From IMG/VR virus record IMGVR_UViG_3300045988_091566: DNA of 64,000 bases; one strand, written 5' to 3'. The notes beneath the pieces were generated by a model. The model was not told the DNA's origin, made no database searches, and saw only the letters and a program-made list of their open reading frames with translations. The DNA comes from a virus. Position 1 is the first letter of the stretch, and each line of letters starts with the position of its first letter. This document shows positions 1 through 62,906 of this stretch, in pieces. Both the position numbers and the translations under genes were made by a program.

Positions 1-349
1 TACTGAAATATTAAATTACTTAGACAATGAAAATAATTATAAATAATATCTTACCTCCAAAAGGTTTTAAATGTATAAATTTATTTGGTATATTATTCTG
101 TAGAAGAATACTAAATAAAATAGATATAAATCATGAAACTATACATACTAAATAGATGCAAGAATTGTTATATATATTCTTTTATTTATGGTATATAATA
201 GAATATTTAATTAGATTAATTATATATAGAGATACTAAATTAGCTTATAAAAATATCTCCTTTGAAAGAGAAGCTTATTAGAATTAGGGTGATTTAAATT
301 ATTTAAGTAATAGAAAACATTATAGTTGGTTTAGTTATATTAAGAAGAT

Positions 350-466
350 ATGAAACAAATGATTAAAACTGGAAAAGGATTACTATGGAAAATAGAACAC
401 CCAGTAGAAATAGCATATTCTGAGATTACTCTAGATTCTTTATTAAAACTATGTGAAAAAATATGA
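350..466 (+). CDS. small hypothetical protein (38 aa); its stop overlaps the next gene's start in an ATGA motif
   Basis: ATG at 350, TGA at 464-466, in frame 2. No in-frame stop. Overlaps the ATG at 463 of the downstream gene, which suggests translational coupling. Confidence 0.3.
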   Translation: MKQMIKTGKGLLWKIEHPVEIAYSEITLDSLLKLCEKI

Positions 467-1818
467 AATGGATACCTAAATATTAGAAAGCAGGTAAATT
501 AAATTTTAAAACTTCTGGATTGTCTTGGCAACAATCTAAATAGGATTAGGAAGTGACAAGACATACTCAATCTATAGGAATTCTGAATCCTACTAATTTA
601 AAAAGAAGATTATAGACAGCTTCTAAAAATTTAAAAGCTAAATATAATAATCTATCAACTAAAGAGAGAATAGCTTTAGCTAAGAGGAGTGTGCCTCATA
701 GTGAGATAGTTACAGTAAGGGATTAGTAGGGAAATACTAAAACTAGTACTAATCCTCAATCAGGAGCTATGTCAGGAGCAGATCCAGTAGGAGAATTTGT
801 AGTAGGAACTGCTGCAGGAAATTTAGGATTAGGTTTAGGTAAAATGGCTCTTTCTAAAATGGGTTAGAATGCAGTTTCCCATTGGGCAAGAAATAGTTTA
901 CTTAATGAGACCGCTGGAAATTTAACTAAGAATTTAAATAATCCATTAATTGAATCTGAAGCAGTACCTTTAGAAGATGGTTTTGTTTACAGAACATTCA
1001 CTCCCTCACATGGAGGATTTGTAAAAAACAATCGAATATATAATAGAAGCTACGGAATAGGAGATGTAAAAGTTCAGAATGGAAAATACTATTCTGTCAG
1101 ATAGGCTCATTTTAATAATCCTGATAAATTATGGTGGGATAAATTTGGACATAATAGAAGACAAGTAGTATAGGTAACTAAAGAATCTAACACATAGTCT
1201 TTATAGGATGCAGCTAATAACGGATTTAATTTAGGTTATGGATATTATACAAAAGGATATAAATTATCAGATCCTATAGAAATTGATAAAGTTATAAATT
1301 ATAAATTAGATCCTATAACCAACACCATGGTTCCTAGTATACCAGAAAAAATTATAAATAATAAACAAACTCCTTCTGAAATATTAAGTACTTCAGTAGA
1401 GGATAATCCTATTATGCAGTTATCTTATTACAAACCTACTAGAAAAGCTTGGAGTACTGGAAAAGCCGAAGGAAATGAAGCTACTTCTTATTTCTTTAAA
1501 CAATAGCCTAATCAAAGATTTGAATTAGTAAAGGACGTTGAACCTAATAATTATTCAATTCATTTTAAAACAGATAGAGATGGTTTAAGCTATGATAATA
1601 AAATGTAGCTATTTGCTAAGGTTGCAGATGAAGTACCTGAAGGTGCTAATCTCTCTACTTGGGGTTCTATATCTAGAGGAGGTATTCATGGTATAAATAG
1701 ATTTGGTAAAGACTTCGGATTTATCTAGAATGGAACTAGGCAACTTACTATGAAGGGAACTAAAGAACCTGTTAATATTCCAATATTTTAGAAACCTTTG
1801 TCTAGTTCCTTAAAATAA
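463..1818 (+). CDS. hypothetical late/structural protein (451 aa), TAG-recoded (about 15 in-frame TAG codons)
   Basis: Hand translation of frame 1 gives a continuous, protein-like sequence (MKWIPKY*KAGKLNFKTSGLSWQQSK...) from ATG 463 to TAA 1816-1818 when TAG is read as sense. There is no in-frame TAA or TGA. The standard-code ORF track shows nothing here. Confidence 0.6.
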
Positions 1819-1830
1819 ATTATTTAGAGA

Positions 1831-2046
1831 ATGAAATAGTTTTTAATTAAATTAATAACAGCGCATACTGGAATAAGTAGTAAAAGAGTGTGTGGAATAT
1901 TAGGATGGGTAATTAGTTTAGTTATTTTAATATACTGTTCTGTTAGTTAGATACAAGCTCCTGATATGATAGATACAGTTTTATATTGTTGTATGGGATT
2001 ACTAGGTATAGATAGCATAACTAGTATATGGAAAAATAAAGTATAA
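1831..2046 (+). CDS. small membrane protein (71 aa) with two predicted TM segments; holin-like candidate; contains 2 in-frame TAG
   Basis: Frame 1 reads M K * F L I K L I T A H T G I S S K R V C G I L G W V I S L V I L I Y C S V S * I Q A P D M I D T V L Y C C M G L L G I D S I T S I W K N K V, then TAA. There are two hydrophobic stretches. It sits in the late block. Confidence 0.35.
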
Positions 2047-2048
2047 AT

Positions 2049-2345
2049 ATGCCAAGAGGAATTAATGGAGAATATTATAATTATAGAATGCCCTTTGGAG
2101 GGAATTATTCGAATCCTTTAATATCTATATATAGTACAATAATACATTCTATAGATAATAAAAATCCTTATTTAATTACTAAAATTTACCAAACTCCAAC
2201 AAAATCAATACTATTTAATCCTAATATTATAGATGGAAAAGGAACAATGCATATTGATTGGAATAATTTAGATATATTTAAAAGTTTAACTCCAATAATA
2301 GGAAGTGCTTATGTTTATAAGAAGAGTAGGAACATTAATAGATGA
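2049..2345 (+). CDS. hypothetical protein (98 aa)
   Basis: ORF track, frame 3. The start context ATAAATATGCCAAGAG is repeated at 2642. Confidence 0.4.
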   Translation: MPRGINGEYYNYRMPFGGNYSNPLISIYSTIIHSIDNKNPYLITKIYQTPTKSILFNPNIIDGKGTMHIDWNNLDIFKSLTPIIGSAYVYKKSRNINR

Positions 2346-2658
2346 AAGTTTATATAATAGATGTATTGATTTAAGTAAAGATTATTTTGATAGAGATTAT
2401 TATAAATACCCTGAATTATAGCAATGGGCTGAAACTACTAGAAGGTATATTATTCAGGTATGGAGATTACAAAATCAATTAAAATACTATAAAGATAATA
2501 TAGACTTAAATAATTTTAAGAATTATAATCATTATAAATACGGAAAATCTCTTTTAGAGAGTTTTATAGGAAATGTTTTTGATTGGAAATTTATAGATTA
2601 TTCCAATAATGTAACTTATACCCATAATATAAAACATAAATATGCCAAGAGTAGATGA
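2311..2658 (+). CDS. hypothetical protein (about 115 aa) with one in-frame TAG; overlaps the previous ORF in another frame
   Basis: Frame 1 reads ATG 2311 ... TTA TAG CAA TGG GCT ... AGA TGA at 2656-2658. The translation MFIRRVGTLIDESLYNRCIDLSKDYFDRDYYKYPEL*QWAETTRRYIIQVWRLQNQLKYYKDN... looks protein-like. Confidence 0.35.
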
Positions 2659-3778
2659 AAGTAAACAAAATAAAGGAGTAAATAATAATACTCGGAATAA
2701 ATAGATGGCTATAGATATGGAATATTATAATAGATTAAATTATCCTAGGTTTAAATCTCCATATCTTGGTGCTAAATATTAGTAGAGAGTTATTCCAGTT
2801 AGAACTTTAAATGGGATACGAGATGTATTTGTAGATAATAGAGGAACTATAAAATAGGGAGGACATACTCATTCTAAATTATATAATTATAGTAATAAGA
2901 ATAGAACCCATCCTATAAAAGGAGCATATGCTAGAGAAGTAGATAGTTGGAATAATAATACTAGTCCTATTAAAGCATTAGTTAATTCAGGAATAGGTTA
3001 TGCTTTAGCTCCAGCTGCTTAGGCAGTATATGATTATACTAAAGGTGCTTTAGATATATCTAAGAATCCAACTAAAGCTAGTAATTATTTAGTAATGCTT
3101 CCTGTAATAGGATATGCTGTAAAAGCTCCTTTAAAACGTGGAGTAGAAGTAGCTATGAGAACTTCTAATGATGCAAATCCTATAGAAGACATAGTATATA
3201 ATATGCATAAAGCAAGTCCTAAAAAGCATGTTGGAGTATTATCTTATATATCAACTGGTGTAGGTTACAATACTTATGCTCCTGAAGCATATACTGGATT
3301 TTAGAAAGCAGCTAAAGGTAATGATATGATTGATGCTTATTTATATAATAAAACTATAAATCCTTCTTATGGAGTAAAGAAAATAAATGTAGATTATGGT
3401 CCACATGAGAATTATATAAGAAAGATATATCCATATAAAGATATTCCTGTATATGAAAATACTGAAACTTTAGATTTCTTTACTAAGAAACCTATGTAGA
3501 AAGCTTCTAATATAACTAATAAAACTCCTTGGAAAGGTGCTAATAATAATCTAGACTTTGGAGATAATGGAGTTGATGCTGCTGGACATTTAGTTTAGGA
3601 AGGAATATCTAATGGTAAGAAAGTATATAGAGCACAAGATATTTGGAAGTTTAATCCTGATGAATATAAGTAGAAATGGAGTTCATATGATTTAGACAGT
3701 AAAGCTGTATTAGGATTAAAAATATTAGATAAATTAGGAACTCCAGTAATAGTAAGAACACCATGGCTGTATAGGTAA
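2642..3778 (+). CDS. hypothetical late/structural protein (378 aa), TAG-recoded (about 9 in-frame TAG)
   Basis: Frame 2 is continuous from ATG 2642 to TAA 3776-3778 if TAG is read as sense. The ORF-track fragment 3095..3304 lies in the same frame. No in-frame TAA or TGA. Confidence 0.55.
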
Positions 3779-4899
3779 TTACTAACAATGATTCAATATA
3801 TGATTATTGGTATGAAGATGGGTAGTTGTATGGTAGAAGAAAATCAAATAAAGTCCCTTTTAAAATTAATTCTGATAAAGCTAATAGTATAATATTTCCA
3901 TAGGTTTAGGCTAAAGGAGTAGATCCTACTAAACCAACATCTACCTTAGTATACCATCCTGCAAAATATAAAGAAATGCCCACTGCTAAAAAAATATCTA
4001 TTCCTAAATAGGAAAAAGAAACAATATGGGAACGTGGTAAATAGTTGATTAATTTAGTAGGAAATGGATTAAGTAGAAAACTATAGTTATTTTTTGATTC
4101 AGAACCTGAGCATACTAGTAAAAGAATTAAAATTTCTAATAAAAAAATAACTAAAAATAAGAGGAGAGAAAATTTAGAAATAGAAATATCTCCAAATAGT
4201 TATACTATAAATGATACTACTAAAATAAACTCTAGAAGATATCGTATACCAGAATCCATAAATTTAACAAAGCATACTTTTGGTTATAGAAATAGAGGTG
4301 ATTATACTCCTATAAATAGTGTAGCAGCTCCTATTACTGCTTTTTCTAATTTCAAATCTAAAGAAAGCATATCTCCTAATAATTAGAATTATATAGGTAT
4401 AGATTCTATTGGTAAATTTGTTTTTGGTAAATATTCAGATATTCCTAATGGAAGTATGATTTCTCCAACATTTAAAAATACAGTTACTGGTTTTAAAACA
4501 GATTCTAAAGATAATGTATTATTCATGGAAAGTAATTCTAATGGTTCTAGAAAAAGTCCTATATTAAATGCTATAGTAAATGGTAAATCAGTAAATAACA
4601 GACTAAATTTCTTAGCTAATAATAATAGAACTGATGAATATGGTTCTATAGCTGGAGGAAGAATAATTATATAGGCGGGTAAAGAAGTTCGTTTAGTTTC
4701 CGGAAGTATAGATAATATTAGAGATGAGATAGAAGCTATGAAATCTAGAAACAATGTTAAAACAGTAGATTTATATACTTTAGATAATGGTACTTATCAT
4801 TCAGGATTAAGAACTTTTGATAAAATATTTACTAGAGATGACTTACTAAAATATGATGCTCAAAATACGGGCGGAGGAAATTTTTTATATATAAAATAA
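3763..4899 (+). CDS. hypothetical late/structural protein (378 aa), TAG-recoded (about 9 in-frame TAG)
   Basis: Frame 1 is continuous from ATG 3763 to TAA 4897-4899 with TAG as sense (MAVQVITNNDSIYDYWYEDG*LYGRRKSNKVPFK...). The ORF-track fragment 4456..4674 lies in the same frame. Confidence 0.55.
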
Positions 4900-4908
4900 T
4901 TAAAACCA

Positions 4909-4954
4909 CAATAGCCGAAGTTTCTCAAATGAGAAGCCTCGGCTATTTTTTTAA
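4909..4954. terminator. bidirectional intrinsic terminator between the convergent + late block and the minus-strand block
   Basis: Long hairpin ATAGCCGAAGTTTCTC-AAAT-GAGAAGCCTCGGCTAT followed by TTTTTTT. The revcomp also ends in a T-run. Confidence 0.6.
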
Positions 4955-6508: not shown

Positions 6509-6721
6509 TTATAGATAACTACTAATACTAAAAGGATTTGTAGTAGAAGTAGTTTTATTATTACTAGTGTTTATTGCAATAAACCCATTATGTGGTATAT
6601 CTTTTAAAACCATATTGTCTATAGTTAATTTAGGTCCATTAATAATATTTACTAGTTCTATTAATTGAGATACTGTAAGATTAGGAACTATCTTATTAAT
6701 TTTTTGTAATGTTTCTATCAT
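6509..6721 (-). CDS. hypothetical protein (70 aa)
   Basis: ORF track. Confidence 0.35.
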   Translation of the reverse strand: MIETLQKINKIVPNLTVSQLIELVNIINGPKLTIDNMVLKDIPHNGFIAINTSNNKTTSTTNPFSISSYL

Positions 6722-6905
6722 TTAAAAAATCAACTATGTGTTTAAATTCTTGTTTATATTTTTTATATTTAGAATTATCTAAATTAGAAGAAAAATCTTC
6801 TAAAGATATATCTGAGATAATTCCAAATATTAGACAAGCATTGTTAAATGTTTCATCATCTAATTTACTACAATATTCTTCAAATTCATCTACCTTTTTA
6901 GTCAT
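6696..6905 (-). CDS. hypothetical protein (69 aa)
   Basis: ORF track. Confidence 0.35.
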   Translation of the reverse strand: MTKKVDEFEEYCSKLDDETFNNACLIFGIISDISLEDFSSNLDNSKYKKYKQEFKHIVDFLNDRNITKN

Positions 6906-7115
6906 GGTTATATGAATTACATTATCAATAACCTATAAATTTATATTATACTAATCAGGAAGGTCTTTAATACTTTGTATTAGTTGTTCTTTATTCATTT
7001 AATATTTCTTTTTGATTACACGAGTAATATAGTCGAGGTAGAGAATATTAAAAGTTAATTTTTGTAAAAGTTAATATTTTAAGAAATTAAAATTAAAATT
7101 TTAAAAATCCAATTA

Positions 7116-7595
7116 CTAAATAAACTTATACTCAATTATATTTTTTATAATTTGAGTTCTATCAGATATTTTACCTTTAAAAAAGTATTCAGGATTTAAA
7201 TAGTAAACAGCTTTATATCTAGAATCTTTTAATAACATCTTTTTCTTTACTAAAGAAGTAATAGTATTACGTATAGTTCCAGCAGCTAAGTTAGTTTTAA
7301 TTTTAATAGTATCTCTAAGTTCTTCATCTAAAGAAATCTTATTTCCTGGAAGTGCCCTATCTTTATCTTCATAATAATTAGAAGTATACCATAAAACAGC
7401 TAATACATTAGACTCTGCTTTAGATAACTTATAAAATTCTTCATTATCTCTTAAATATATCTGGCAGAATTGTTCAGCACTAACAGTTTTAATAGTTTTA
7501 ACTTCAGCTGATAATATCTCTCCACCCACTCCAACTTTAATTGACTCTATTTGTTTCATATTAACATTTGTTTTAATTAAAATTAATTTATTCAT
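7116..7595 (-). CDS. hypothetical protein (159 aa), possible DNA-binding regulator
   Basis: ORF track. It is the first gene of the minus-strand unit and lies next to the divergent promoter region. Confidence 0.45.
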   Translation of the reverse strand: MNKLILIKTNVNMKQIESIKVGVGGEILSAEVKTIKTVSAEQFCQIYLRDNEEFYKLSKAESNVLAVLWYTSNYYEDKDRALPGNKISLDEELRDTIKIKTNLAAGTIRNTITSLVKKKMLLKDSRYKAVYYLNPEYFFKGKISDRTQIIKNIIEYKFI

Positions 7596-12677: not shown

Positions 12678-13029
12678 AAAAATTGTATCAGGTTGTGAGA
12701 GTCTTGCCGGTAAAGCTCTCACAATAGATCATGATGCTAGAACTTATCACATTGGTGATAGAGTAATTCCATTTTCTTCTTGTGTTATTAAAGAAGGTAA
12801 AATTTATTACTTGACACCAATGTGTAAAGTTCTTGTTGATATGGGTTTTAAAGGCGTAGCAGATTTTACCTCTAATACAGTTATTTGTACTAGTTTTGAT
12901 AATTGTAATCGCAATATTAAAACTGTAGGACTTGTAACTATCGACGACAGAGTCTTTATTAAGATTACTCTTAATTCAGAATTTCCAATGTATGAAGGTT
13001 ACGAATCTTTAAGAAGTGAAGTTTATTAG
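12655..13029 (+). CDS. hypothetical protein (124 aa); ends TAG followed immediately by TAA
   Basis: ORF track. The terminal codons are TAT TAG TAA. Confidence 0.4.
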   Translation: MNTESLNKKIVSGCESLAGKALTIDHDARTYHIGDRVIPFSSCVIKEGKIYYLTPMCKVLVDMGFKGVADFTSNTVICTSFDNCNRNIKTVGLVTIDDRVFIKITLNSEFPMYEGYESLRSEVY

Positions 13030-13184
13030 TAAAAAAAGAATGAAGCTGCACTCTAGTACTATAGAGTATAATAAATAGTTGACATCTTGGAAAGAAAATT
13101 GGTTAATCATAAGACAAGACTTATGTATTTTTAAAATAAAATAGTTATCAACAATATACAGTTTAGATCATTTTCGCTAGTTCG

Positions 13185-15716: not shown

Positions 15717-15796
15717 GCGGAGTTAGCTTAATGGCTAGAGCACCTTACTTCCACAATTCATGAGAGGTTATATTGGTTCGAATCCTTTACTCCGTA
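15717..15796 (+). tRNA. atypical tRNA-like gene (80 nt); anticodon arm not canonical, isotype undetermined
   Basis: Acceptor GCGGAGT/ACTCCGT and D arm GCTT-AATGGCTA-GAGC are clear, and it contains GGTTCGAATCC. Positions 26-52 form only a stem (ACCTT/GAGGT) around a 17-nt loop. The T stem is weak. Confidence 0.4.
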
Positions 15797-16227: not shown

Positions 16228-16311
16228 ACGGTAGTAGCTCAGTGGTTAGAGCATCTCTTTTTATAATAGGTCATTTCGAGAAGGTCATTGGTTCGAATCC
16301 TTTCTACCGTA
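16228..16311 (+). tRNA. atypical tRNA-like gene (84 nt); anticodon arm not canonical, isotype undetermined
   Basis: Acceptor ACGGTAG/CTACCGT and D arm GCTC-AGTGGTTA-GAGC are clear. The region ending ATTGGTTCGAATCCTTT is identical to the corresponding region of the 15717 gene. The middle 34 nt fold only as a TCTC/GAGA stem around a 20-nt loop. Confidence 0.4.
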
Positions 16312-16419
16312 CAAATTTAATTTGATATATTGTTAGTGTGTTTGGATAAATCCTGACTAATAAATTTATTAGTATAGGTAGGTGTTACCACTATTCTCCT
16401 TTATAGAAATGTGGGCTAT

Positions 16420-16489
16420 GGAGATATAGCTCAGAAGGTCAGAGCACGGTGAAAATCCCGAGGTTGTGGTTCAATTCCACGTATCTCCA
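16420..16489 (+). tRNA. atypical tRNA-like gene (70 nt); no canonical anticodon stem found
   Basis: Acceptor GGAGATA/TATCTCC, D arm GCTC-AGAAGGTCA-GAGC, T arm TGTGG-TTCAATT-CCACG. The 19 nt in between (ACGGTGAAAATCCCGAGGT) do not form a 5/7/5 arm. Confidence 0.35.
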
Positions 16490-28584: not shown

Positions 28585-29097
28585 AGAGTTCTAAATTAGA
28601 ACTCTTTTAAGTATGGGGCATTCGTGGTTTTGATTGTATAGGAGATAAGAAGCACAGCAAAGACAGTTGGAAAGACAACAAAACAATAAATGCTAGAGTT
28701 ATCAATATGACTTCTGTTTCTTACGCTATTGCAGCCTAAGAAACCGAGCAGCACTTGCTTAGGAACAGAAAGGTGCACTATTTTCCATTTCTTTTAAGTT
28801 CTCTGTATACTTTAGGAACAGAGTGGTGGAAGTTGACAGTATATTAATCCTGTCAACCCTAACAGACAAGGACAGTCTTTAAAACCTATGCTGTAAGAAC
28901 GTTTTGATGCAAATATGCAAGACTGGAGTTTAATTTCGGACTCGGTATAGAGTGATTTATACAATAATTAATCGGATGAATTCAGGGAACGCTAAAAATA
29001 ATGCTTAGCTAGAACTAACATTATTCATGCCAATCCTGAGCTAAGCATATAGTACACTATATGAAAGTGCAGAGACTACTGGAGAGATTTAGTTCTC
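28585..29097. other. about 510-nt GC-elevated non-coding region immediately 3' of the minus-strand HNH gene; multiple hairpins; candidate structured RNA or intron-like element
   Basis: No credible ORF. Minus-strand hairpins GTTGACAG..CTGTCAAC, CCTAAG..CTTAGG and GCTTAGCT..AGCTAAGC. Confidence 0.3.
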
Positions 29098-29727
29098 TTA
29101 ATTACCAGCTTGAGCGTCCGACCCTTCATTAGAAGGTGATGATATAGTCCACTCCTCATCGAAAGATGAGGTATAGGAAGATATTAGTTTTAAAAACTTT
29201 TTAGTATCTAAATCAGACATTTCAGATTTCATAAAATTTATTGGAGTAGATATAAATTGTACATTTCCTTTGATATAGCCTTTAGAAGAATCTATCCTAT
29301 CAAGAGAGGCTCTGTAAATAAAAGGAATTTTTTTTAGATTTCCATAAGTAGGGAGAATAAGGTCTAGTCCTGTGTAAGGACATTTACCATTTTGTTTTTC
29401 CCATACTTCTTTTAAATATTCTAAATCTATATCAACTTCCTTAAATCTTTTTTTAGCATTTCTAAGGGAATATCTAAAAGGTGTATATTCATCTTCATGA
29501 TTATTACATATATTTAATAGGTGTTCTCTTTGTTTATCTGAAATTGGTCTGCCAGCTCTACTTTTATTATTAAATTTAGCTGCACATGATCTAGAACAAA
29601 AATTATGTCTTCCTAATCTAACATTTCTTTTGTACTCGGATTCAGGTTTCTGAAATTCCTTACCACAACAATCACAAGTGATTGTAACTAACTTTCTACC
29701 AATACAATACTTTTTTAATTCTGTCAT
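29098..29727 (-). CDS. HNH homing endonuclease (HNH_3-like; 209 aa)
   Basis: N-terminal Cys-rich region CDCCGKEF..CSRSCAAKF. C-terminal NGKCPYTGLDL...SLDRIDSSKGYIKGNVQFIS, matching the LDRIDNxKGY HNH_3-type signature. Confidence 0.75.
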   Translation of the reverse strand: MTELKKYCIGRKLVTITCDCCGKEFQKPESEYKRNVRLGRHNFCSRSCAAKFNNKSRAGRPISDKQREHLLNICNNHEDEYTPFRYSLRNAKKRFKEVDIDLEYLKEVWEKQNGKCPYTGLDLILPTYGNLKKIPFIYRASLDRIDSSKGYIKGNVQFISTPINFMKSEMSDLDTKKFLKLISSYTSSFDEEWTISSPSNEGSDAQAGN

Positions 29728-30009
29728 AGATTTAAATTTTAACTATACAATTATAGTTTAGTATTGTGGAATTGCAAAGTTAAGAAATGTTAATAGGCGA
29801 CTCTCCAATGCTCCACTAGTTCATAGAACTGTTTTTTATTATTTGTTTTTAATCCCTGGGCTATTATTATAGTTCAGGGATTTTTGTTTAATTTTAACTG
29901 TTAATTATGGAAGAATATATTAATAACTCTATTAAAATAATTGATGATATGTTACACAACATAGACATTCTTATAAATTTATTAAAGTAATTATTAAACA
30001 TTTATCAAA

Positions 30010-36252: not shown

Positions 36253-36329
36253 AGAGTATTAAGCCCTGTTGGTAAGGGAACTAGACTATCACTCTAGTAA
36301 AACTAAGGGTTCGAGTCCCTTATATTCCG
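36253..36329 (+). tRNA. tRNA-Asp-like with A34: anticodon loop CTATCAC (anticodon ATC) where Asp tRNAs normally carry CTGTCAC
   Basis: T arm AAGGG-TTCGAGT-CCCTT, anticodon arm CTAGA-CTATCAC-TCTAG, D stem CCC/GGG, acceptor AGAGTAT/ATATTCC (one mismatch). Confidence 0.4.
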
Positions 36330-36353
36330 CAACTAATTAAAAAAATAAATAAT

Positions 36354-36914: not shown

Positions 36915-36933
36915 ACTATTAAATTAAATATTT

Positions 36934-37272
36934 ATGAAAATAACTATTGATACAGACAATTTAGAAACATTAAAGTATAAAACTGAAGATGTTCCTATTT
37001 TAATGAAGACTTTCCAACAATTAATAAATAAATTAATGTATGAAGTAATAGGGGATTATTATTCTGTAGACAATGTTCCTGAAGATACTCCAAAATGGGT
37101 AAAAGAAGAACTACTTAATGTAGGAAAAACCTGTTATATGGATGGGCATATGAATAAAGAATATGTCTTTAAAGGTATTCAAGAAACATTTGAGGATTAT
37201 TATTATATATTAGAAGACAATAATAAAAAAATTTCTTATTCTTCATGCGTTGGAAAGATATCTTATAAATAA
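36934..37272 (+). CDS. hypothetical protein (112 aa)
   Basis: ORF track. Confidence 0.45.
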   Translation: MKITIDTDNLETLKYKTEDVPILMKTFQQLINKLMYEVIGDYYSVDNVPEDTPKWVKEELLNVGKTCYMDGHMNKEYVFKGIQETFEDYYYILEDNNKKISYSSCVGKISYK

Positions 37273-37503
37273 TGTAATGATATTTCATATAACATAAAAA
37301 GCTAAATCAGAGTAATTACCTGACTATGGGAGTTTTACTGTTCTCCTGCTTTTTATGTAAATTTTAAACAGTAATTAAAAAAATAGTACAATATGAAGAA
37401 ATTCAAAGAATGCACCAGTGAAGAAATTAAATTAGCTATATCAAATAGCGAAAGTTTAAATTAGGTTTGTAAGTAGTTATTATGTACCAATAATACTTAC
37501 AAT

Positions 37504-38109
37504 ATGAATAAAATAAAAGATTTTATTAAATCAAATAATTTAAGTATAAAACATTTTAAAACTAGATATTCTAAGGAATCATACGATAAAAATCCTAAAG
37601 TATGTAAATACTGTGGAAAAATTATTCCTTATGAAAAACGAGTTAATGATTTTTGTAATCATTCTTGTGCAACTAGTTATAATAATATTGGAGTAGTACG
37701 CAATAAACCATCTTTACCTACTTATTCACTCTGTTTAAACTGTGGAAAAGAAATTACTAAAGGAAATAAATATTGTAATAATACATGTAAAGCAGAATAT
37801 GAAAGAAAGGAGTATATTAAAAGATGGAAAGCAGGGAAAGAATCAGGTATTATTGGAAAAGATAAAATAGCTACAGCAGTAAAAATATATTTAAGAGAAA
37901 AATTTAATAATTCTTGCCAAAAATGTGGGTGGAATTAGGTAAATTATTTCACAGGTTTAGTACCATTGCAAATTCATCATATTGATGGGGACTGTTTAAA
38001 TAATAAAGAATCTAACCTTTAGTTATTATGTCCTAATTGTCATGCTTTAACAGAAAATTTTGGTTCTAGAAATAAAAATTGTACTAGAATTGATAAAAGA
38101 ATACGGTAA
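37504..38109 (+). CDS. HNH homing endonuclease with N-terminal Zn-ribbon repeats; contains 2 in-frame TAG codons (37939, 38020). Either TAG-recoded or a pseudogene
   Basis: The ORF-track segment 37504..37938 ends at TAG. The same frame continues VNYFTGLVPLQIHHIDGDCLNNKESNL*LLCPNCHALTEN... to TAA 38107-38109. The HNH motif (HHID...N...CPNCH) lies downstream of the first TAG. Confidence 0.55.
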
Positions 38110-51246: not shown

Positions 51247-52017
51247 ATGAATTTAAATTTTGGTGGTCTTGGTGATATTAATCCTACAAGTAAGAAAGGT
51301 CTTCGTCCTTATGGAATTTATCTTGTTCAGTTAAAAAGTGTAGAAACTAAGGAAGGTCAAGGTAAACAAGACCCTAGTACAACTTGGAAATCTCTGGTAC
51401 TTCATTTTGAAGGAGAGCAAGGAACTTATCAAGAATCATTGTTTTATCCTAATGAAAGTTCTGCTAAAAGATATGAGGGTAAGAGAAAGGATTCTAAGGG
51501 TGTAGAATTCCCATATGTACTTCCTTCAGCATTTGAACAGCTTAAAGGTTTTATGCTGCATATTATAACAGTAGTAGGTGGTGATAAAGCTAAAGAATTG
51601 TTTATAACTAAAACTCCTGCTTGTAAGAGTACTGACCAATTCATGCAGCTTTTCCAGGCAGTATTAACTAAGCATTGTATGAATAAAAACTTTTATTTAA
51701 AGCTTAGCGGTCGTAAGGAAAAGAAAAAGGATGAAAAGGGAATCTCAAAGGAAACTGGCAATGTATTTGCTAAGATTCCTGATATTGGAGCTATTAATAG
51801 TGATGGACAGTTCTATATCCGTGATAATTTTGCTAGCTTAGAGGAAGATAAATTGTCATTCTTTAGTTATGAGATTAAGCAGAAAGAGGATATGGAGAAG
51901 CGTAAGCCTACTGCTCCTATGCCAGCAGCTGATTCAGAAGAGGCTAAATCTATTGACTCTACTGAAGGCAAGGAGGCTCAAGATGAAGACTTCGATGCTA
52001 TGCTGGCAGATATGTAG
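51247..52017 (+). CDS. putative ssDNA-binding protein (T7 gp2.5-like?) with an acidic C-terminal tail ending in an aromatic residue (256 aa)
   Basis: C-terminus EAQDEDFDAMLADM. Located in the replication module, upstream of the primase. Confidence 0.35.
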   Translation: MNLNFGGLGDINPTSKKGLRPYGIYLVQLKSVETKEGQGKQDPSTTWKSLVLHFEGEQGTYQESLFYPNESSAKRYEGKRKDSKGVEFPYVLPSAFEQLKGFMLHIITVVGGDKAKELFITKTPACKSTDQFMQLFQAVLTKHCMNKNFYLKLSGRKEKKKDEKGISKETGNVFAKIPDIGAINSDGQFYIRDNFASLEEDKLSFFSYEIKQKEDMEKRKPTAPMPAADSEEAKSIDSTEGKEAQDEDFDAMLADM

Positions 52018-52040
52018 TAATTATAAAGTAAGTAGTTTTT

Positions 52041-53097: not shown

Positions 53098-53595
53098 GTG
53101 CACGATTATACATCTATAGAGGAATGCTCTGAGAAAACTAAAATAAGTCAAGCAGCTCTTAAAATTAGATGTAATAAATCTGGAAAAATGGCTGATGGCA
53201 CTTTATATGAATGGATAGATAGCCATACTAAGAAGAGTTATCAAGCTAAAAAATCTAGAAATAAAGGTCATAAATATGAATTAGATGTTATAAAGGAACT
53301 TACTGATTTAGGTTATAAAGGATTAGTTAGTTCTAGATCACAAAATCGTAATTTAGATAATGCAAAAATAGATATAGCAGAAACAGAGGATCATTTAAGT
53401 TGTTATGTTCAGTGTAAAGCCACAGCTAATATTCCAAACGTAGCAAAAATAAATGCTGAAGTTGGTTATACTGACAGACCTCTTGCTATTTTTTGGAAAA
53501 AACAAAATGTAACAACTGGATTAAAAGAATTTGTGATTATACCAAAAACTTATTTTTATAGTTTATTAGAGCATGACAAGGTTAACAACAAGTGA
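53098..53595 (+). CDS. hypothetical protein (165 aa)
   Basis: ORF track. Confidence 0.45.
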   Translation: MHDYTSIEECSEKTKISQAALKIRCNKSGKMADGTLYEWIDSHTKKSYQAKKSRNKGHKYELDVIKELTDLGYKGLVSSRSQNRNLDNAKIDIAETEDHLSCYVQCKATANIPNVAKINAEVGYTDRPLAIFWKKQNVTTGLKEFVIIPKTYFYSLLEHDKVNNK

Positions 53596-54613
53596 ATTTA
53601 TAAAATAGGCTAAAAATGCTCATGGTGATAAATATGACTATTCTAAGGTAATTTATAAAACAAAAAAAGATAAGGTTTGTATAATATGTCATAATAAAGA
53701 TGAGAATGGAATAGAGCATGGAGAATTTTGGTAGACTCCAGATCAACATTCTAGAGGACAAGGTTGCCCTAAATGTAAATTTGAAAAATTATCTAAAGAT
53801 AGGGCTGATACTAAAGAAACTTTTATTGAAAAAGCTAATAAAGTTCATAATAATAAATATAATTATGATAAAGTAGTTTATAAAAATAGATATTAGAAAG
53901 TTATTATAACTTGCCCTATTCATGGAGACTTTATTCAAGATCCTAATAATCATCTTAGTGGTAAAGGTTGTCCAATATGCGGAAGAATAAGTGCTGCTAA
54001 AACGCACACTATGTCTAACGATGAATATATAAGAAGAGTCCAAATTACTCATCCTGAATATGATTATTCTATTACTAATTATACAGGAATAAATAATTCA
54101 ATTCAATATATTTGTCCTAGTCATGGTGTAATAACTCAAAGTGCTCATGACCATTTATATAATCAAGCTGGATGCCCTAAATGTAATCAATCTCATGGCG
54201 AAAAAGCTATACTTCAATATCTTAAAAATAAAGATATTTGGGTAATTCCTCAATATGACATTCCTATAGATACTAATATTAATTATACCGGTAAAGCTTA
54301 TATAGATTTTTATTTACCTGAATATAATGTATTTATAGAATATAATGGAATACAACATTATACGCCTGTGAAACACTTTGGAGGTAAAATACAGTTTGAA
54401 AAACAAAGACTTAGAGATAATGCTATAAGAAAATATTGCTCTATAGAAAATATAAAACTTATTGAAATTCCTTGGAATATAAATTTAAAATTAATACCTG
54501 ATATTTTAGATTATTCTTTACAAAACTTAGATAAGCCTTCTATAGCATTTGTAGGAATGGATTTCTTCTATACTTTATTAGAATGTTATTCTAAAAGTAA
54601 TAATTTAATATGA
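53573..54613 (+). CDS. putative homing-type endonuclease: repeated CPxHG..GCPxC Zn-ribbon modules plus a C-terminal DUF559/Vsr-like PD-(D/E)xK nuclease domain; 3 in-frame TAG (53606, 53732, 53894)
   Basis: Frame 2 is continuous from ATG 53573 to 54613 if TAG is sense. The ORF-track piece 54011..54613 is in the same frame. Repeats KYDYSKV.YK...KV.IICP.HGEFW*TP..H..G.GCPKC. C-terminal IDFYLPEYNVFIEYNGIQHY. Paralog at 61575. Confidence 0.55.
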
Positions 54614-59612: not shown

Positions 59613-59896
59613 TGAAATATATTACTATTCCTAAAAGTAGTGATACTACTATAGATTTAGCAGCTATTACTAATAATTATAAAGGTATAATTATCGCTTA
59701 TAAAGAAGGTATGGCTGTAGGAAGCATTTCATATTGTTCAGATACCGATCTGTGGTATTTTTGTGACAATATAGATAGTAATCAATTTGATACATGTAAA
59801 GGTACATTATTAGAAGTAGTCAATGAATTAATAGATACTAAACATATAGCAGATAATTTTAGATTATTAGAATTTTATACTAACAACGATGATTAG
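59612..59896 (+). CDS. hypothetical protein (94 aa); tandem paralog of the previous ORF
   Basis: AAITNNYKGIIIAYKEGMAVGSISY ... FRLLEFY. Confidence 0.45.
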   Translation: MKYITIPKSSDTTIDLAAITNNYKGIIIAYKEGMAVGSISYCSDTDLWYFCDNIDSNQFDTCKGTLLEVVNELIDTKHIADNFRLLEFYTNNDD

Positions 59897-60509
59897 TAGA
59901 GAAGACGTTTTACAAGAAGCTTTACATAAGTGTTTTGTAGAAATGTATAGATGGGCTCAACCTTCTATAGATTTGGATGAGCTTATTAAAAATGGATTTA
60001 AAGATAGTGAAAAAGATCCTTTATATGCTAGACATTATTTATCTCAAGATAATTTTAAGTATATAAGAGATACTTATATGGATGCATATGGTATTAAGGA
60101 TACTTGGGATGATACTTTTGAAATATTAATTAAGCAACTCTTAGAAGGAGGTATAGAAGATGACTATAAAGAAGCTACTCCTGATAAACCTGCTTATAGA
60201 GATTATAAAAAAGTTCTCCCATTAAAAGAAGTTATTACTTGCCCAGGAGAAGTTAATACTATTATTGACTATATAAAGAAATGTCAAAACTTTTATAAAG
60301 GGCATTGCTATGAAACTAATAAATTTTCTTGTAGTATTGCATTAGGTCCTAGTCCCAATTGTAATGCAAAACATGTTACAGAATATTGGCATAGTCATGG
60401 CAAACCAGAGTTTAAAATAGTAGAATATAATATCTCAGATGTTATTTACGGAGATGGAGATTTTGAAGAAGTATCTGATGAAGAATTCCTCGCTACATTA
60501 AAATGGTAA
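59889..60509 (+). CDS. hypothetical protein (206 aa)
   Basis: ORF track. Confidence 0.5.
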   Translation: MISREDVLQEALHKCFVEMYRWAQPSIDLDELIKNGFKDSEKDPLYARHYLSQDNFKYIRDTYMDAYGIKDTWDDTFEILIKQLLEGGIEDDYKEATPDKPAYRDYKKVLPLKEVITCPGEVNTIIDYIKKCQNFYKGHCYETNKFSCSIALGPSPNCNAKHVTEYWHSHGKPEFKIVEYNISDVIYGDGDFEEVSDEEFLATLKW

Positions 60510-60739: not shown

Positions 60740-61514
60740 ATTTACTTTAGAAGAAGTATTAAAAGGAAAAGCTACTAGTATTAAGGGTAAAGATTATCTT
60801 CCTACTAGAGGATATATTGAGCCTTTCCTAGAAAGAGTTCAAAAATTAACTTCTGATATTAGAGTACATGTAAAATTACCTGATCAAATTACTTATAATA
60901 AAAATGGTGATATAGATACTGCTGATTTAACTTTTAATAGAGTATGGTTAGAAGCAGTATTACCAAATGAATATTCAGTAGATAATCATAAAGAAACTAT
61001 AAATATGTTATATGGATTAGATACTAGAAAACCTATAATAAAGTTTTTTAGAACAGGATTAAATATGGCATGTTTAAATATGTGTGTATTTAATCCTAGT
61101 TATATAAGAGTTTCTGAATTATCTCCTGATAAACCTGTGGATTATTCTCCTGTAAAAACTTTAGTAGAAGCTACTGACTCATTGGGAATTTTCCTTAAAA
61201 CTTTGAAAAATACTGAATTTAATACCTCAGAATCTAACATAAATATCAGTTTAGGATATTGGGTAAGACAAGCTATAACTGAATTTGAAGATAATGGTTT
61301 TGGTAAAATAAAGTTAGCTACTTCTGAAGTTATAGCTTCTTATAAACGTATGTTTGAAGATTCTAAATCTGATTATTATATAGGAATTAATGGAGAAGCT
61401 TCAATGTTTGATGTTTATAATAGTTTTACAGAAGGTATTTCAAATGATAATAATAAGGATATTATGAATAAATTTGAAAAATGTGTATTACTTAAAAAAA
61501 TTTTAAATTTGTAA
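60720..61514 (+). CDS. hypothetical protein (264 aa)
   Basis: ORF track. Confidence 0.5.
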   Translation: MERMPTEFTLEEVLKGKATSIKGKDYLPTRGYIEPFLERVQKLTSDIRVHVKLPDQITYNKNGDIDTADLTFNRVWLEAVLPNEYSVDNHKETINMLYGLDTRKPIIKFFRTGLNMACLNMCVFNPSYIRVSELSPDKPVDYSPVKTLVEATDSLGIFLKTLKNTEFNTSESNINISLGYWVRQAITEFEDNGFGKIKLATSEVIASYKRMFEDSKSDYYIGINGEASMFDVYNSFTEGISNDNNKDIMNKFEKCVLLKKILNL

Positions 61515-61574
61515 AAATTTATTTGCTTCTTGTACAAATCTATATATAGTCATCTTAACTAAATCATAATACAG

Positions 61575-62906
61575 ATGAATAAAGAATATTTTATTAAAAA
61601 AGCTCAAGAAATTCATGGAAATAAGTATGATTATTCCCTAGTAGAAGTTTCTAGATCAAAAGATAAAGTTAAGATAATATGTCCTATTCATGGAGTGTTT
61701 GTGCAAGAAGCAAATTCACATTTATAGGGACGAGGTTGTGCTATTTGTTCAGGTAAAAAATTTGATTTAGATACCTTTATACGAAAAGCAAATAAAATTT
61801 GGAATAATAAATATGATTATTCCAAAGTAGTCTATACGGGTACTAATAACAAAGTATGTATCATATGTCCTGAACATGGAGAATTTTGGCAAACAGTTAG
61901 TAATCATTTAAAAGGACAATGTGCTTGTAAGGAATGCCGAGGAAAAAGTAAAGATTTTAAAGTAATTAGATCCAAAGAGGATTTTGTAAAAGCTGCTAAT
62001 GAAAAGTATAATTATAAATTTGATTATTCAAAAGTAGATTTTAAAGGTAGTAGAGAAAAAGTTTGTATTATATGCCCTGAACATGGAGAATTTTGGTAGT
62101 TACCTTATCAGCATTTAAATTGTAAAAATGGATGTCCTAAATGTACTAATACTTTCAGATTTACTCAAGATGAATTTATTAAAGAATGTGAGAAAATTCA
62201 TCCCGAATATACTACAAATAAAACTGTTTATACTGGAATAACTAATTCAGTAATTTTAACTTGCCCAAAACATGGAGATTTTAGCATATTAGCATCAACT
62301 TTAATATACCATCATGGATATTGTCCAGATTGTGCTATAGAATCTTATACTTTAACTAAAGAAGATTTTATAAAAAAAGCTAGAGAAGTTCATGGTTGGA
62401 AATACGATTATAGTGAAGTTAATTATATAAATTATAAAACTCCAATTACTATCATTTGCCCAAAACATGGTAAATTTGAGCAATCACCAGGTAATCATTT
62501 AAAAGGGTGTAAATGCCCTGAATGTGCTAGAGAACAAATAGAGCCTAGTAAAGGAGAATTATTTATAAAAAATTTATTAAATAAATATCATTGTAAATAT
62601 AAATTTCAATATGAGATAAAGACTAAAGAAATAGCACGTAATTCTAATAAAATTATAGTAGATTTCATAGTAAAACATAATGATTGTATTTATATAATAG
62701 AATATAATGGAAAACAACATTATGAATTTATACCATTTTTTCATAATAGCCAAGAAGATTTTCAAAAACAAATTAGAAGAGATAATTTATTAAGAAAAAT
62801 ATGTAGTAAACATCCTGGAAAATTAGAATTGATAGAAATTCCTTATAATTATTCTAATTCTAAAATAATAGATACACTCTCTTTTTTAGATGAAACAAAA
62901 ATTTAA
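61575..62906 (+). CDS. paralog of the 53573 gene: Zn-ribbon-repeat plus DUF559-like endonuclease with 2 in-frame TAG (61725, 62097)
   Basis: Frame 3 is continuous from ATG 61575 to TAA 62904-62906 if TAG is sense. Repeats KYDYS.V.Y.....KV.IICPEHGEFW*LPYQHL...GCPKC. C-terminal IVDFIVKHNDCIYIIEYNGKQHY. Invisible in the ORF track. Confidence 0.55.

Follow-up and report, generated by a model that had tools for sequence, protein, structure and literature searches.

Two genetic codes in a large crAss-like gut phage: TAG most likely read as glutamine in a probable lysis-type cassette beside standard-code early genes

The 64,000-nucleotide stretch of the IMG/VR virus record IMGVR_UViG_3300045988_091566, analysed here at its full length (hereafter the window; G+C 29.3%), opens with a puzzle. 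In the standard code, positions 1-4900 (the block) hold only short open reading frames (ORFs), and the question is whether this region is a field of decayed genes or a cassette written in another code. When TAG is taken as a sense codon, the stretch 27-4899 resolves into seven contiguous plus-strand genes followed by a terminator, and we conclude that TAG is a sense codon there (translation table 15). Overall, we believe, with a probability of about 0.93, that the window comes from a two-code crAss-like phage in which TAG encodes glutamine (Gln, Q) in a lysis-type late operon that lies beside standard-code early genes. The genes of the block and the terminator that closes it are these:

27-353, plus strand: small zincin-like protease (HExxH), 108 amino acids; 3 in-frame TAGs, stop TGA
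463-1818, plus strand: 451-amino-acid protein with no assigned function; 15 in-frame TAGs, stop TAA
1831-2046, plus strand: 71-amino-acid hydrophobic (membrane) protein; 2 in-frame TAGs
2049-2345, plus strand: 98-amino-acid ORF inside the block; no TAG; in an insertion (~2059-2625) absent from IMG/VR contig L003 and ENA contig L016
2311-2658, plus strand: 115-amino-acid ORF; 1 in-frame TAG, stop TGA; 99% identical to an ORF of GenBank MT835539.1
2642-3778, plus strand: 378-amino-acid protein with no assigned function; 9 in-frame TAGs, stop TAA
3763-4899, plus strand: 378-amino-acid protein; 9 in-frame TAGs, stop TAA; C-terminal domain common to peptidoglycan-hydrolase fusions
4910-4954, plus strand: intrinsic terminator at the end of the recoded operon (16-bp hairpin, then T7), identified by folding energy

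Together the seven genes carry 39 TAGs in 1599 codons and not one in-frame TAA or TGA, whereas this DNA read in its two other frames has 312 such stops (249 TAA and 63 TGA). The longest frame free of TAA and TGA runs to 453 codons, against a maximum of 149 in 500 shuffles, and ORFs of at least 100 amino acids cover 4662 nucleotides of the block, where shuffles average 53 and reach at most 774; because both values so far exceed the shuffles, chance is excluded as the origin of these frames. Coverage of positions 1-4900 by ORFs of at least 80 amino acids rises from 36% in the standard code to 93% with TAG as sense, and is 48% with TGA as sense (codes 4 and 25), a reading for which the block offers no in-frame TGA at all. 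In the remaining ~59 kb of the window, the same measure gives 77% (standard), 82% (TAG-sense) and 83% (TGA-sense).

An earlier note on this DNA, made from its letters, had described five of these frames (463-1818, 1831-2046, 2311-2658, 2642-3778 and 3763-4899) with roughly 35 in-frame TAGs and no other stop, and all five are present as described, with 36 TAGs (15+2+1+9+9); the comparison of translation tables that it proposed as a check comes out in its favor in the coverage values above. Its gene count fell short, however, as the gene at 27-353 (3 TAGs, a member of PHROG 15610) had been missed and the TAG-free ORF at 2049-2345 also belongs to the block. The two ATGA junctions that it reported do not exist in the window, where adjacent genes are separated by gaps of 109, 12 and 2 nucleotides or overlap by 35, 17 and 16 nucleotides; ATGA overlaps are found only in the relative L016. 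It had also placed a strong bidirectional terminator at the end of the block. The plus-strand hairpin at 4910-4947 is real (folding energy dG -22.6 kcal/mol, z -8.2, followed by T7), while the claim of bidirectionality is weak, as the minus-strand side has only a T4 run. A consensus terminator scanner failed on the 4910-4954 hairpin, owing to its internal mismatch. The code boundary falls at the terminator (4910-4954).

The same block with the same TAGs recurs across independent assemblies, with orthologs 87-99% identical at the protein level in the IMG/VR contig L003, in four ENA contigs of 29-179 kb (L016-L019) and in GenBank MT835539.1. Relative to L003 and L016, the block genes show no frameshifts and a ratio of nonsynonymous to synonymous substitution rates (dN/dS) of 0.21-0.27, values that point to purifying selection on the frames.

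Beyond the boundary the picture changes. A replication and nucleotide-metabolism module occupies 45-64 kb of the window (helicases, a Sak4-like protein, primase, RusA-like resolvase, exonucleases and NrdD), and its confident genes use TAG in 0 of 6459 codons. Among the 77 standard-code ORFs of at least 90 amino acids beyond 4.9 kb, the stop is TAA in 51, TGA in 15 and TAG in 11, and some early genes end in tandem stops:

52015-52020, plus strand: TAG-TAA tandem stop of an early gene
13027-13032, plus strand: TAG-TAA tandem stop of an early gene
7113-7118, minus strand: TAG-TAA tandem stop of an early gene
59894-59899, plus strand: TAG-TAG tandem stop of an early gene

The second stop behind an early-gene TAG looks like a back-up against amber read-through in the late phase. 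A second stop within three codons past the TAA is found in 61% of late genes, against 27-43% of early genes, but the genes are too few for this difference to bear an interpretation. The proposal that recoding is confined to the block holds for the replication module but not for three early-region genes:

37393-38109, plus strand: HNH homing-endonuclease gene; 4 in-frame TAGs, 2 of them inside the HNH domain
53573-54613, plus strand: homing-endonuclease-like gene with DUF723 / zinc-ribbon repeats; 3 in-frame TAGs
61575-62906, plus strand: homing-endonuclease-like paralog of 53573-54613; 2 in-frame TAGs

The product of 37393-38109 has a Pfam HNH match at residues 175-218 (25.9 bits, cut-off 21.4), and that of 53573-54613 matches PHROG 559 'HNH endonuclease' over residues 2-318 (E 3e-61). 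The paralog at 61575-62906 matches PHROG 559 (E 3e-66) and PHROG 681 (E 6e-59), and a Pfam DUF723 match at its residues 143-191 covers the TAG at residue 175. In each of the three genes, TAGs thus fall within HNH, DUF723 or zinc-ribbon domains. All three genes are insertions missing from GenBank MT835492.1, which is 92-98% identical elsewhere; the window stretches missing around them are 36920-38108, 53268-54556 and 61032-62905. The three are mobile homing-endonuclease genes, and the window holds at least four HNH or homing-endonuclease genes.

The extent of the recoding becomes visible in a relative. Two unannotated GenBank scaffolds from one study, MT835539.1 (54,949 bp; loci L102/L103) and MT835492.1 (121,623 bp; loci L004/L007/L008), overlap by 124 bp with 100% identity at both ends and together form a 176,324-bp circle, whose nucleotide identity to the window is mostly 88-99%. 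In the orientation of the window, the cassette of this relative is divergent from a ~89-kb run of minus-strand TAG-recoded late genes, a run in which standard-code ORFs are almost absent and TAG-sense ORFs are nearly complete; one of the latter spans 3401 codons with 128 TAGs. The recoded share of the relative comes to ~96 kb, or ~55% of its genome. Related contigs measure 165-188 kb. The window primase shares 30-35% identity with annotated crAss primases and the portal of the relative 23-31% with crAss portals, and we conclude that the window is part of a large (~176 kb) crAss-like gut phage with two genetic codes. The late-type TAG-sense block beside standard-code genes is the layout of crAss-like phages to which the earlier note had likened it.

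What, then, does TAG encode? For a codon-level test, we used the DNA sequences of 80 IMG/VR protease loci and compared the 67 homologs without in-frame TAG. Opposite protease TAG43, in the motif HExxHTxQ, CAA or CAG stands in 67 of 67 TAG-free homologs, a column that is ascertainment-biased because one of the two homolog search patterns demanded Q there. Opposite TAG87, in an unbiased column, the TAG-free homologs have Q in 46 of 65 cases, E in 12 and D in 7, and TAG85 falls in a variable column, mostly Ala, Asp, Asn or Ser. Overall, Q accounts for 41.7% of the residues opposite protease TAGs, against a background of 2.6% (a 16-fold enrichment). In cr110_1 the protease gene stops at its own TAG, in the standard code, and has Q at the TAG43 column. 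Close relatives retain 162 conserved TAG=TAG pairs over 5-13% divergence and show 15 distinct changes, 6 of them to CAA/CAG and 3 to GAA/GAG, the remainder being singletons that include TAT and TGG; like the TAG87 column, these substitutions are free of the bias at TAG43.

Codon usage tells a similar story. In the block, TAG makes up 2.44% of codons, CAA 1.13% and CAG 0.19%, and the corresponding early-gene values are 0%, 1.56% and 1.13%. The late genes of the 176-kb relative contain 788 TAGs in 24,587 codons, or 61% of all their Gln codons, and the bases flanking TAG in these genes do not differ from those flanking CAA/CAG (p 0.68), so that TAG acts as an ordinary sense codon rather than a context-dependent read-through site. 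In the GEFWQ repeat of the endonuclease-like gene 53573-54613, TAG stands at the conserved Q; another TAG of this gene, at 53606, aligns to a Lys of the paralog, and earlier caution about that position was well placed. Judged from aligned columns and codon exchanges, TAG most likely stands for Gln in the block, as had been suggested from the letters alone.

Other readings of these data deserve to be weighed against this one. That the first 4.9 kb consists of decaying pseudogenes, with the TAGs as nonsense mutations, would suit the low standard-code coverage and the four proteins without a family match, but the frames are broken by TAG alone, with no TAA or TGA in frame against 312 off-frame, TAG positions are kept over 5-13% divergence in the 162 pairs, and the same pattern spans the ~96 kb of essential late genes in the relative. 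Indeed, because the orthologs lack frameshifts and dN/dS is low, a pseudogene field, the outcome that the earlier note had named as fatal to its own reading, is excluded for practical purposes. We find it very improbable, too, that the TAGs are true stops subject to context-dependent programmed read-through, yielding low-level extensions and not a reassignment. Such a model draws on the failure to find a dedicated CUA suppressor tRNA and on the TAGs that still act as stops in some early genes; it is countered by flanking bases that do not differ from those of CAA/CAG and by numbers, since a gene of the window can hold up to 15 TAGs and the 3401-codon ORF of the relative holds 128, so that partial read-through would yield essentially no full-length product.

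A further possibility is that TAG is sense but specifies some different amino acid (Lys, Glu, Tyr, Trp or pyrrolysine, for example), or that its decoding is ambiguous. The variable columns such as TAG85, the Lys opposite TAG 53606, the exchanges with GAA/GAG, TAT and TGG, and a sole stop-reading tRNA candidate that is type-II-like and unlike phage tRNA-Gln could all be read in this way. We nevertheless regard it as improbable, given the 16-fold enrichment of Q opposite TAG, the invariant Q at the HExxHTxQ column (ascertainment-biased as it is) and at the GEFWQ motif, and the depletion of CAG where TAG is abundant. The commonest exchange, moreover, is a single transition to CAA/CAG, and metaproteomics of other crAss-like phages gave Gln at TAG (PMC9523058).

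At the same time, several points weigh against a two-code phage with TAG as Gln in a late operon. Besides the bias at TAG43, we dropped the protein-database alignment of protease homologs as evidence for TAG=Gln: its source contigs had been translated with TAG as Q, so that Q in this alignment is not independent evidence. (The large protein database concerned, with proteins P0001-P0178 and loci L016-L019, already renders TAG as Q.) For four of the seven block proteins, Pfam, PHROG and PDB searches revealed no recognizable function, and we infer the late timing of the block from its gene content and synteny. The decoding step, too, is not explained by a canonical suppressor, release factor or synthetase: ARAGORN and Rfam find a CUA-anticodon suppressor tRNA neither in the window nor in the complete 176-kb relative, and scans that took in 28 early ORFs gave no release factor or aminoacyl-tRNA synthetase for the window or the genome of the relative.

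How might a phage with TAG as Gln in its late genes nonetheless operate? In the published model of Borges et al., expression would begin with the early genes in the standard code and with the tRNA array, a UAG-decoding activity would then accumulate, and full translation of the TAG-bearing late/lysis genes and homing endonucleases would follow only after the decoder has built up, with the code difference acting as a translational timer. The decoder could be the UUA tRNA listed below, or else an undetected or host-derived activity. The window contains 11-14 tRNAs (ARAGORN, Rfam), and one of them is predicted to read a stop codon:

16228-16312, plus strand: atypical 85-nucleotide tRNA in the tRNA array of the early region, its anticodon predicted as UUA; ARAGORN tRNA-Stop(tta)

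In the ARAGORN prediction, the anticodon stem of this tRNA is mismatched, position 37 is U and the variable arm is long, and by Rfam it scores 53.2 bits with a 15-nucleotide insertion in the anticodon arm; its body is type-II-like, unlike phage tRNA-Gln, and CTA occurs nowhere in it outside the acceptor stem. It is near-identical in seven IMG/VR contigs (25-176 kb) and in MT835539.1. A search with an exact 24-mer for divergent homologs gave near-identical copies only, and a degenerate pattern gave only chance matches to non-tRNA sequence; because all copies found are near-identical, there is no covariation against which to test the predicted fold. As the only candidate for a stop-codon-reading tRNA it would be the putative UAG decoder, and wobble could allow a UUA anticodon to read UAG. 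In the late genes of the relative, the stop is TAA in 23 of 27, which argues against efficient reading of UAA by this tRNA. A model in which the lineage reads UAG via the 85-nucleotide UUA tRNA (U:G wobble), possibly with inactivation of host release factor 1 (RF1), and in which UAA stays the main stop, seems to us unlikely, though worth stating: if true, it would be a non-canonical route to code 15, and it could explain why most TAG-recoded phage genomes show no CUA suppressor.

Other searches for a decoder returned little. A stem-loop scan for xU-CUA-xx loops gave chance-level hits and nothing tRNA-like, and no gene for a release factor, an aminoacyl-tRNA synthetase or tRNA modification turned up when 28 early ORFs were scanned with Pfam. 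A 'Pyl(cta)' called in the relative by ARAGORN at a relaxed threshold was rejected as spurious, being inside an ORF, with a poor cloverleaf and no Rfam support. The array itself is unusual. Aberrant tRNAs lie at 15717-15796, 16228-16312, 16420-16489 and 18368-18440 (all plus strand); two of them have a common T-arm with two U-U mismatches (ATTGG/CCTTT) and 5-12 extra bases around the anticodon arm. In one (Phe-like) the anticodon stem is 3 bp long, and one has a 6-nucleotide anticodon loop, CGTAGA. The UUA tRNA and the tRNA with the 6-nucleotide loop both recur in related IMG/VR contigs. A tRNA-Asp at 36253-36330 (plus strand) has a predicted anticodon ATC (A34), where its ortholog in MT835492.1 carries GTC; A34 is uncommon in a tRNA-Asp, and if deaminated to inosine it could misread GAA.

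The block is not a self-contained unit. The ENA relatives L016-L019 are collinear with the window and show the region upstream of its position 1, where a plus-strand operon begins ~6.6 kb before the window does. Its order in these relatives is a 254-amino-acid protein, an 81-amino-acid zinc-finger protein, an SLT lytic transglycosylase (PF01464), two proteins without a known role, a 1093-amino-acid LysM + Amidase_2 protein, the protease, the homolog of 463-1818, the 71-amino-acid membrane protein, the homolog of 2642-3778 and then the same terminator. This collinearity indicates that the block is the distal half of a ~7-10 kb plus-strand operon, to which the window adds 3763-4899 as an extra gene; the cassette is mosaic between relatives. 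This context suggests a late cassette of cell-envelope-lytic or lysis type. Of the earlier label 'late/structural', the first half agrees with this setting, and the second is not borne out, as the context is one of cell-wall hydrolysis or lysis. The recoded zone may also extend slightly past the plus-strand operon. Minus-strand genes beside the cassette may carry in-frame TAGs in L016 (2487-3182 and 533-745), and at 6696-6998 of the window (minus strand) two TAGs lie between an upstream ATG and the standard-code start.

Among the individual products, the protease is the most readily placed: residues 1-104/105 match PHROG 15610 'protease' end to end over its 3 TAGs (E 1.7e-46), a family of small HExxH zincin-like proteins whose annotation came first from crAssphage. 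The four large block proteins gave no matches in Pfam, PHROG and PDB sequence searches. One of them, the 451-amino-acid product of 463-1818, is ~87-90% identical to its L003 and L016 orthologs (dN/dS 0.23-0.27) and keeps 14 of its 15 TAG positions in L003, with CAA/CAG exchanges seen; it has no Pfam, PHROG or PDB match, and tblastn against GenBank phages also found none. The product of 2642-3778 is 92-94% identical to the L003 and L016 orthologs (dN/dS 0.22-0.25). For 3763-4899, the C-terminal 220 residues show 37% identity to a domain inside the LysM-amidase protein of the relatives, and database homologs of this domain are fusions to Amidase_2 or SLT. The 71-amino-acid protein of 1831-2046 weakly resembles PHROG 1322 'membrane protein' (E 0.003) and sits beside the protease in contigs L002, L016, L022 and L023; it may be holin-like.

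Mobile elements are also a feature of this lineage. A group I intron matches the full-length Rfam model at window 28915-29171 (plus strand, 85.9 bits), with no clear protein exons flanking it in any frame. The 886-bp stretch that overlaps it, 28924-29809, is missing from MT835492.1 and also holds a minus-strand 209-amino-acid ORF with a zf-FCS zinc finger (29101-29727). Beside the cassette in MT835539.1, at 24808-26751 (L102), lies a TAG-free ORF of 647 amino acids that resembles a PD-(D/E)XK/Cas4-type exonuclease and has an apparent intein with a LAGLIDADG motif, read from sequence only; its homolog in L003/L016 is insert-free, at 301-305 amino acids. The terminase of the relative is apparently split by an endonuclease ORF.

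Regardless of how UAG is decoded, the two-code layout has already been published for crAss-like phages and the genomes of this lineage are already public, with table 15 already used in the public gene calls for the sister contigs; the phenomenon is a known one. Reassignment of TAG to Gln, mostly limited to late genes, was described for crAss-like phages by Yutin et al. 2021 (PMC7886860), Gln was found at TAG by metaproteomics in two crAss-like phages by Peters et al. 2022 (PMC9523058), and Mgcod is a gene finder designed for block-wise dual coding (10.1101/2022.06.29.495998). The timing/lysis model, in which replication genes keep the standard code and endonucleases are recoded, is that of Borges et al. 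2021/2022 (10.1101/2021.08.26.457843), who reported a recoded intron endonuclease in a TGA-recoded phage and suggested that endonuclease synthesis is delayed. For annotation, the consequence is plain: table 11 leaves the block and ~55% of the phage genome looking empty, and table 15 gives a lysis-type cassette. For biology, this is a further instance of a published strategy, in which the code switch may time late-gene and lysis expression, and the TAGs in mobile homing-endonuclease genes fit the published idea that synthesis of these enzymes is postponed until late.

Set beside the known code-15 crAss-like phages, the lineage shares a low G+C gut-phage genome with crAss-type primase and portal, in-frame TAG (Gln) concentrated in late/lysis genes with replication genes in the standard code, rare use of TAG as a stop, and a tRNA array in the standard-code part. 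Its early-region homing endonucleases with recoded stops resemble those of the TGA-recoded phage of Borges et al. Unlike many code-15 phages, it has no tRNA(CUA) even in the 176-kb relative, as is true of ~60% of TAG-recoded genomes. TAG suppressor tRNAs were detected in ~40% of such genomes (10.1101/2021.08.26.457843), and 'extremely divergent' or host suppressors have been proposed (PMC7886860). The sole predicted stop-anticodon tRNA in our lineage is the atypical UUA species. Here the comparison is with E. coli supB, an ochre-type suppressor tRNA(UUA) derived from tRNA-Gln, and with an alpha-group crAss-like phage in which a tRNA-Gln has mutated from TTG to TTA (PMC7886860). The tRNA at 16228-16312 likewise has a predicted UUA anticodon and sits in a phage tRNA array, but it differs from supB-type suppressors in a body that is not tRNA-Gln-like (85 nucleotides, mismatched anticodon stem, U37, 15-nucleotide insertion) and in a setting where UAA remains the main late-gene stop.

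A further parallel is with the zeta crAss-like phages, the proposed 'Echekviridae', whose genomes measure 145-192 kb (PMC7886860, PMC12386605) and for which TAG-TAA tandem stops and missing suppressors have been noted (PMC12386605), though CTA suppressors are present in those zeta phages of its list that recode amber. Our close matches include no zeta genome from that list, and no named zeta genome appears among the portal/primase hits; portal and primase are only 23-35% identical to those of classified Crassvirales. The lineage resembles the zeta group in genome size (176.3 kb in the relative), in its many homing endonucleases, its group I intron and the apparent intein of the relative, and it shares with that group the amber or opal recoding of structural genes and the TAG-TAA tandem stops.

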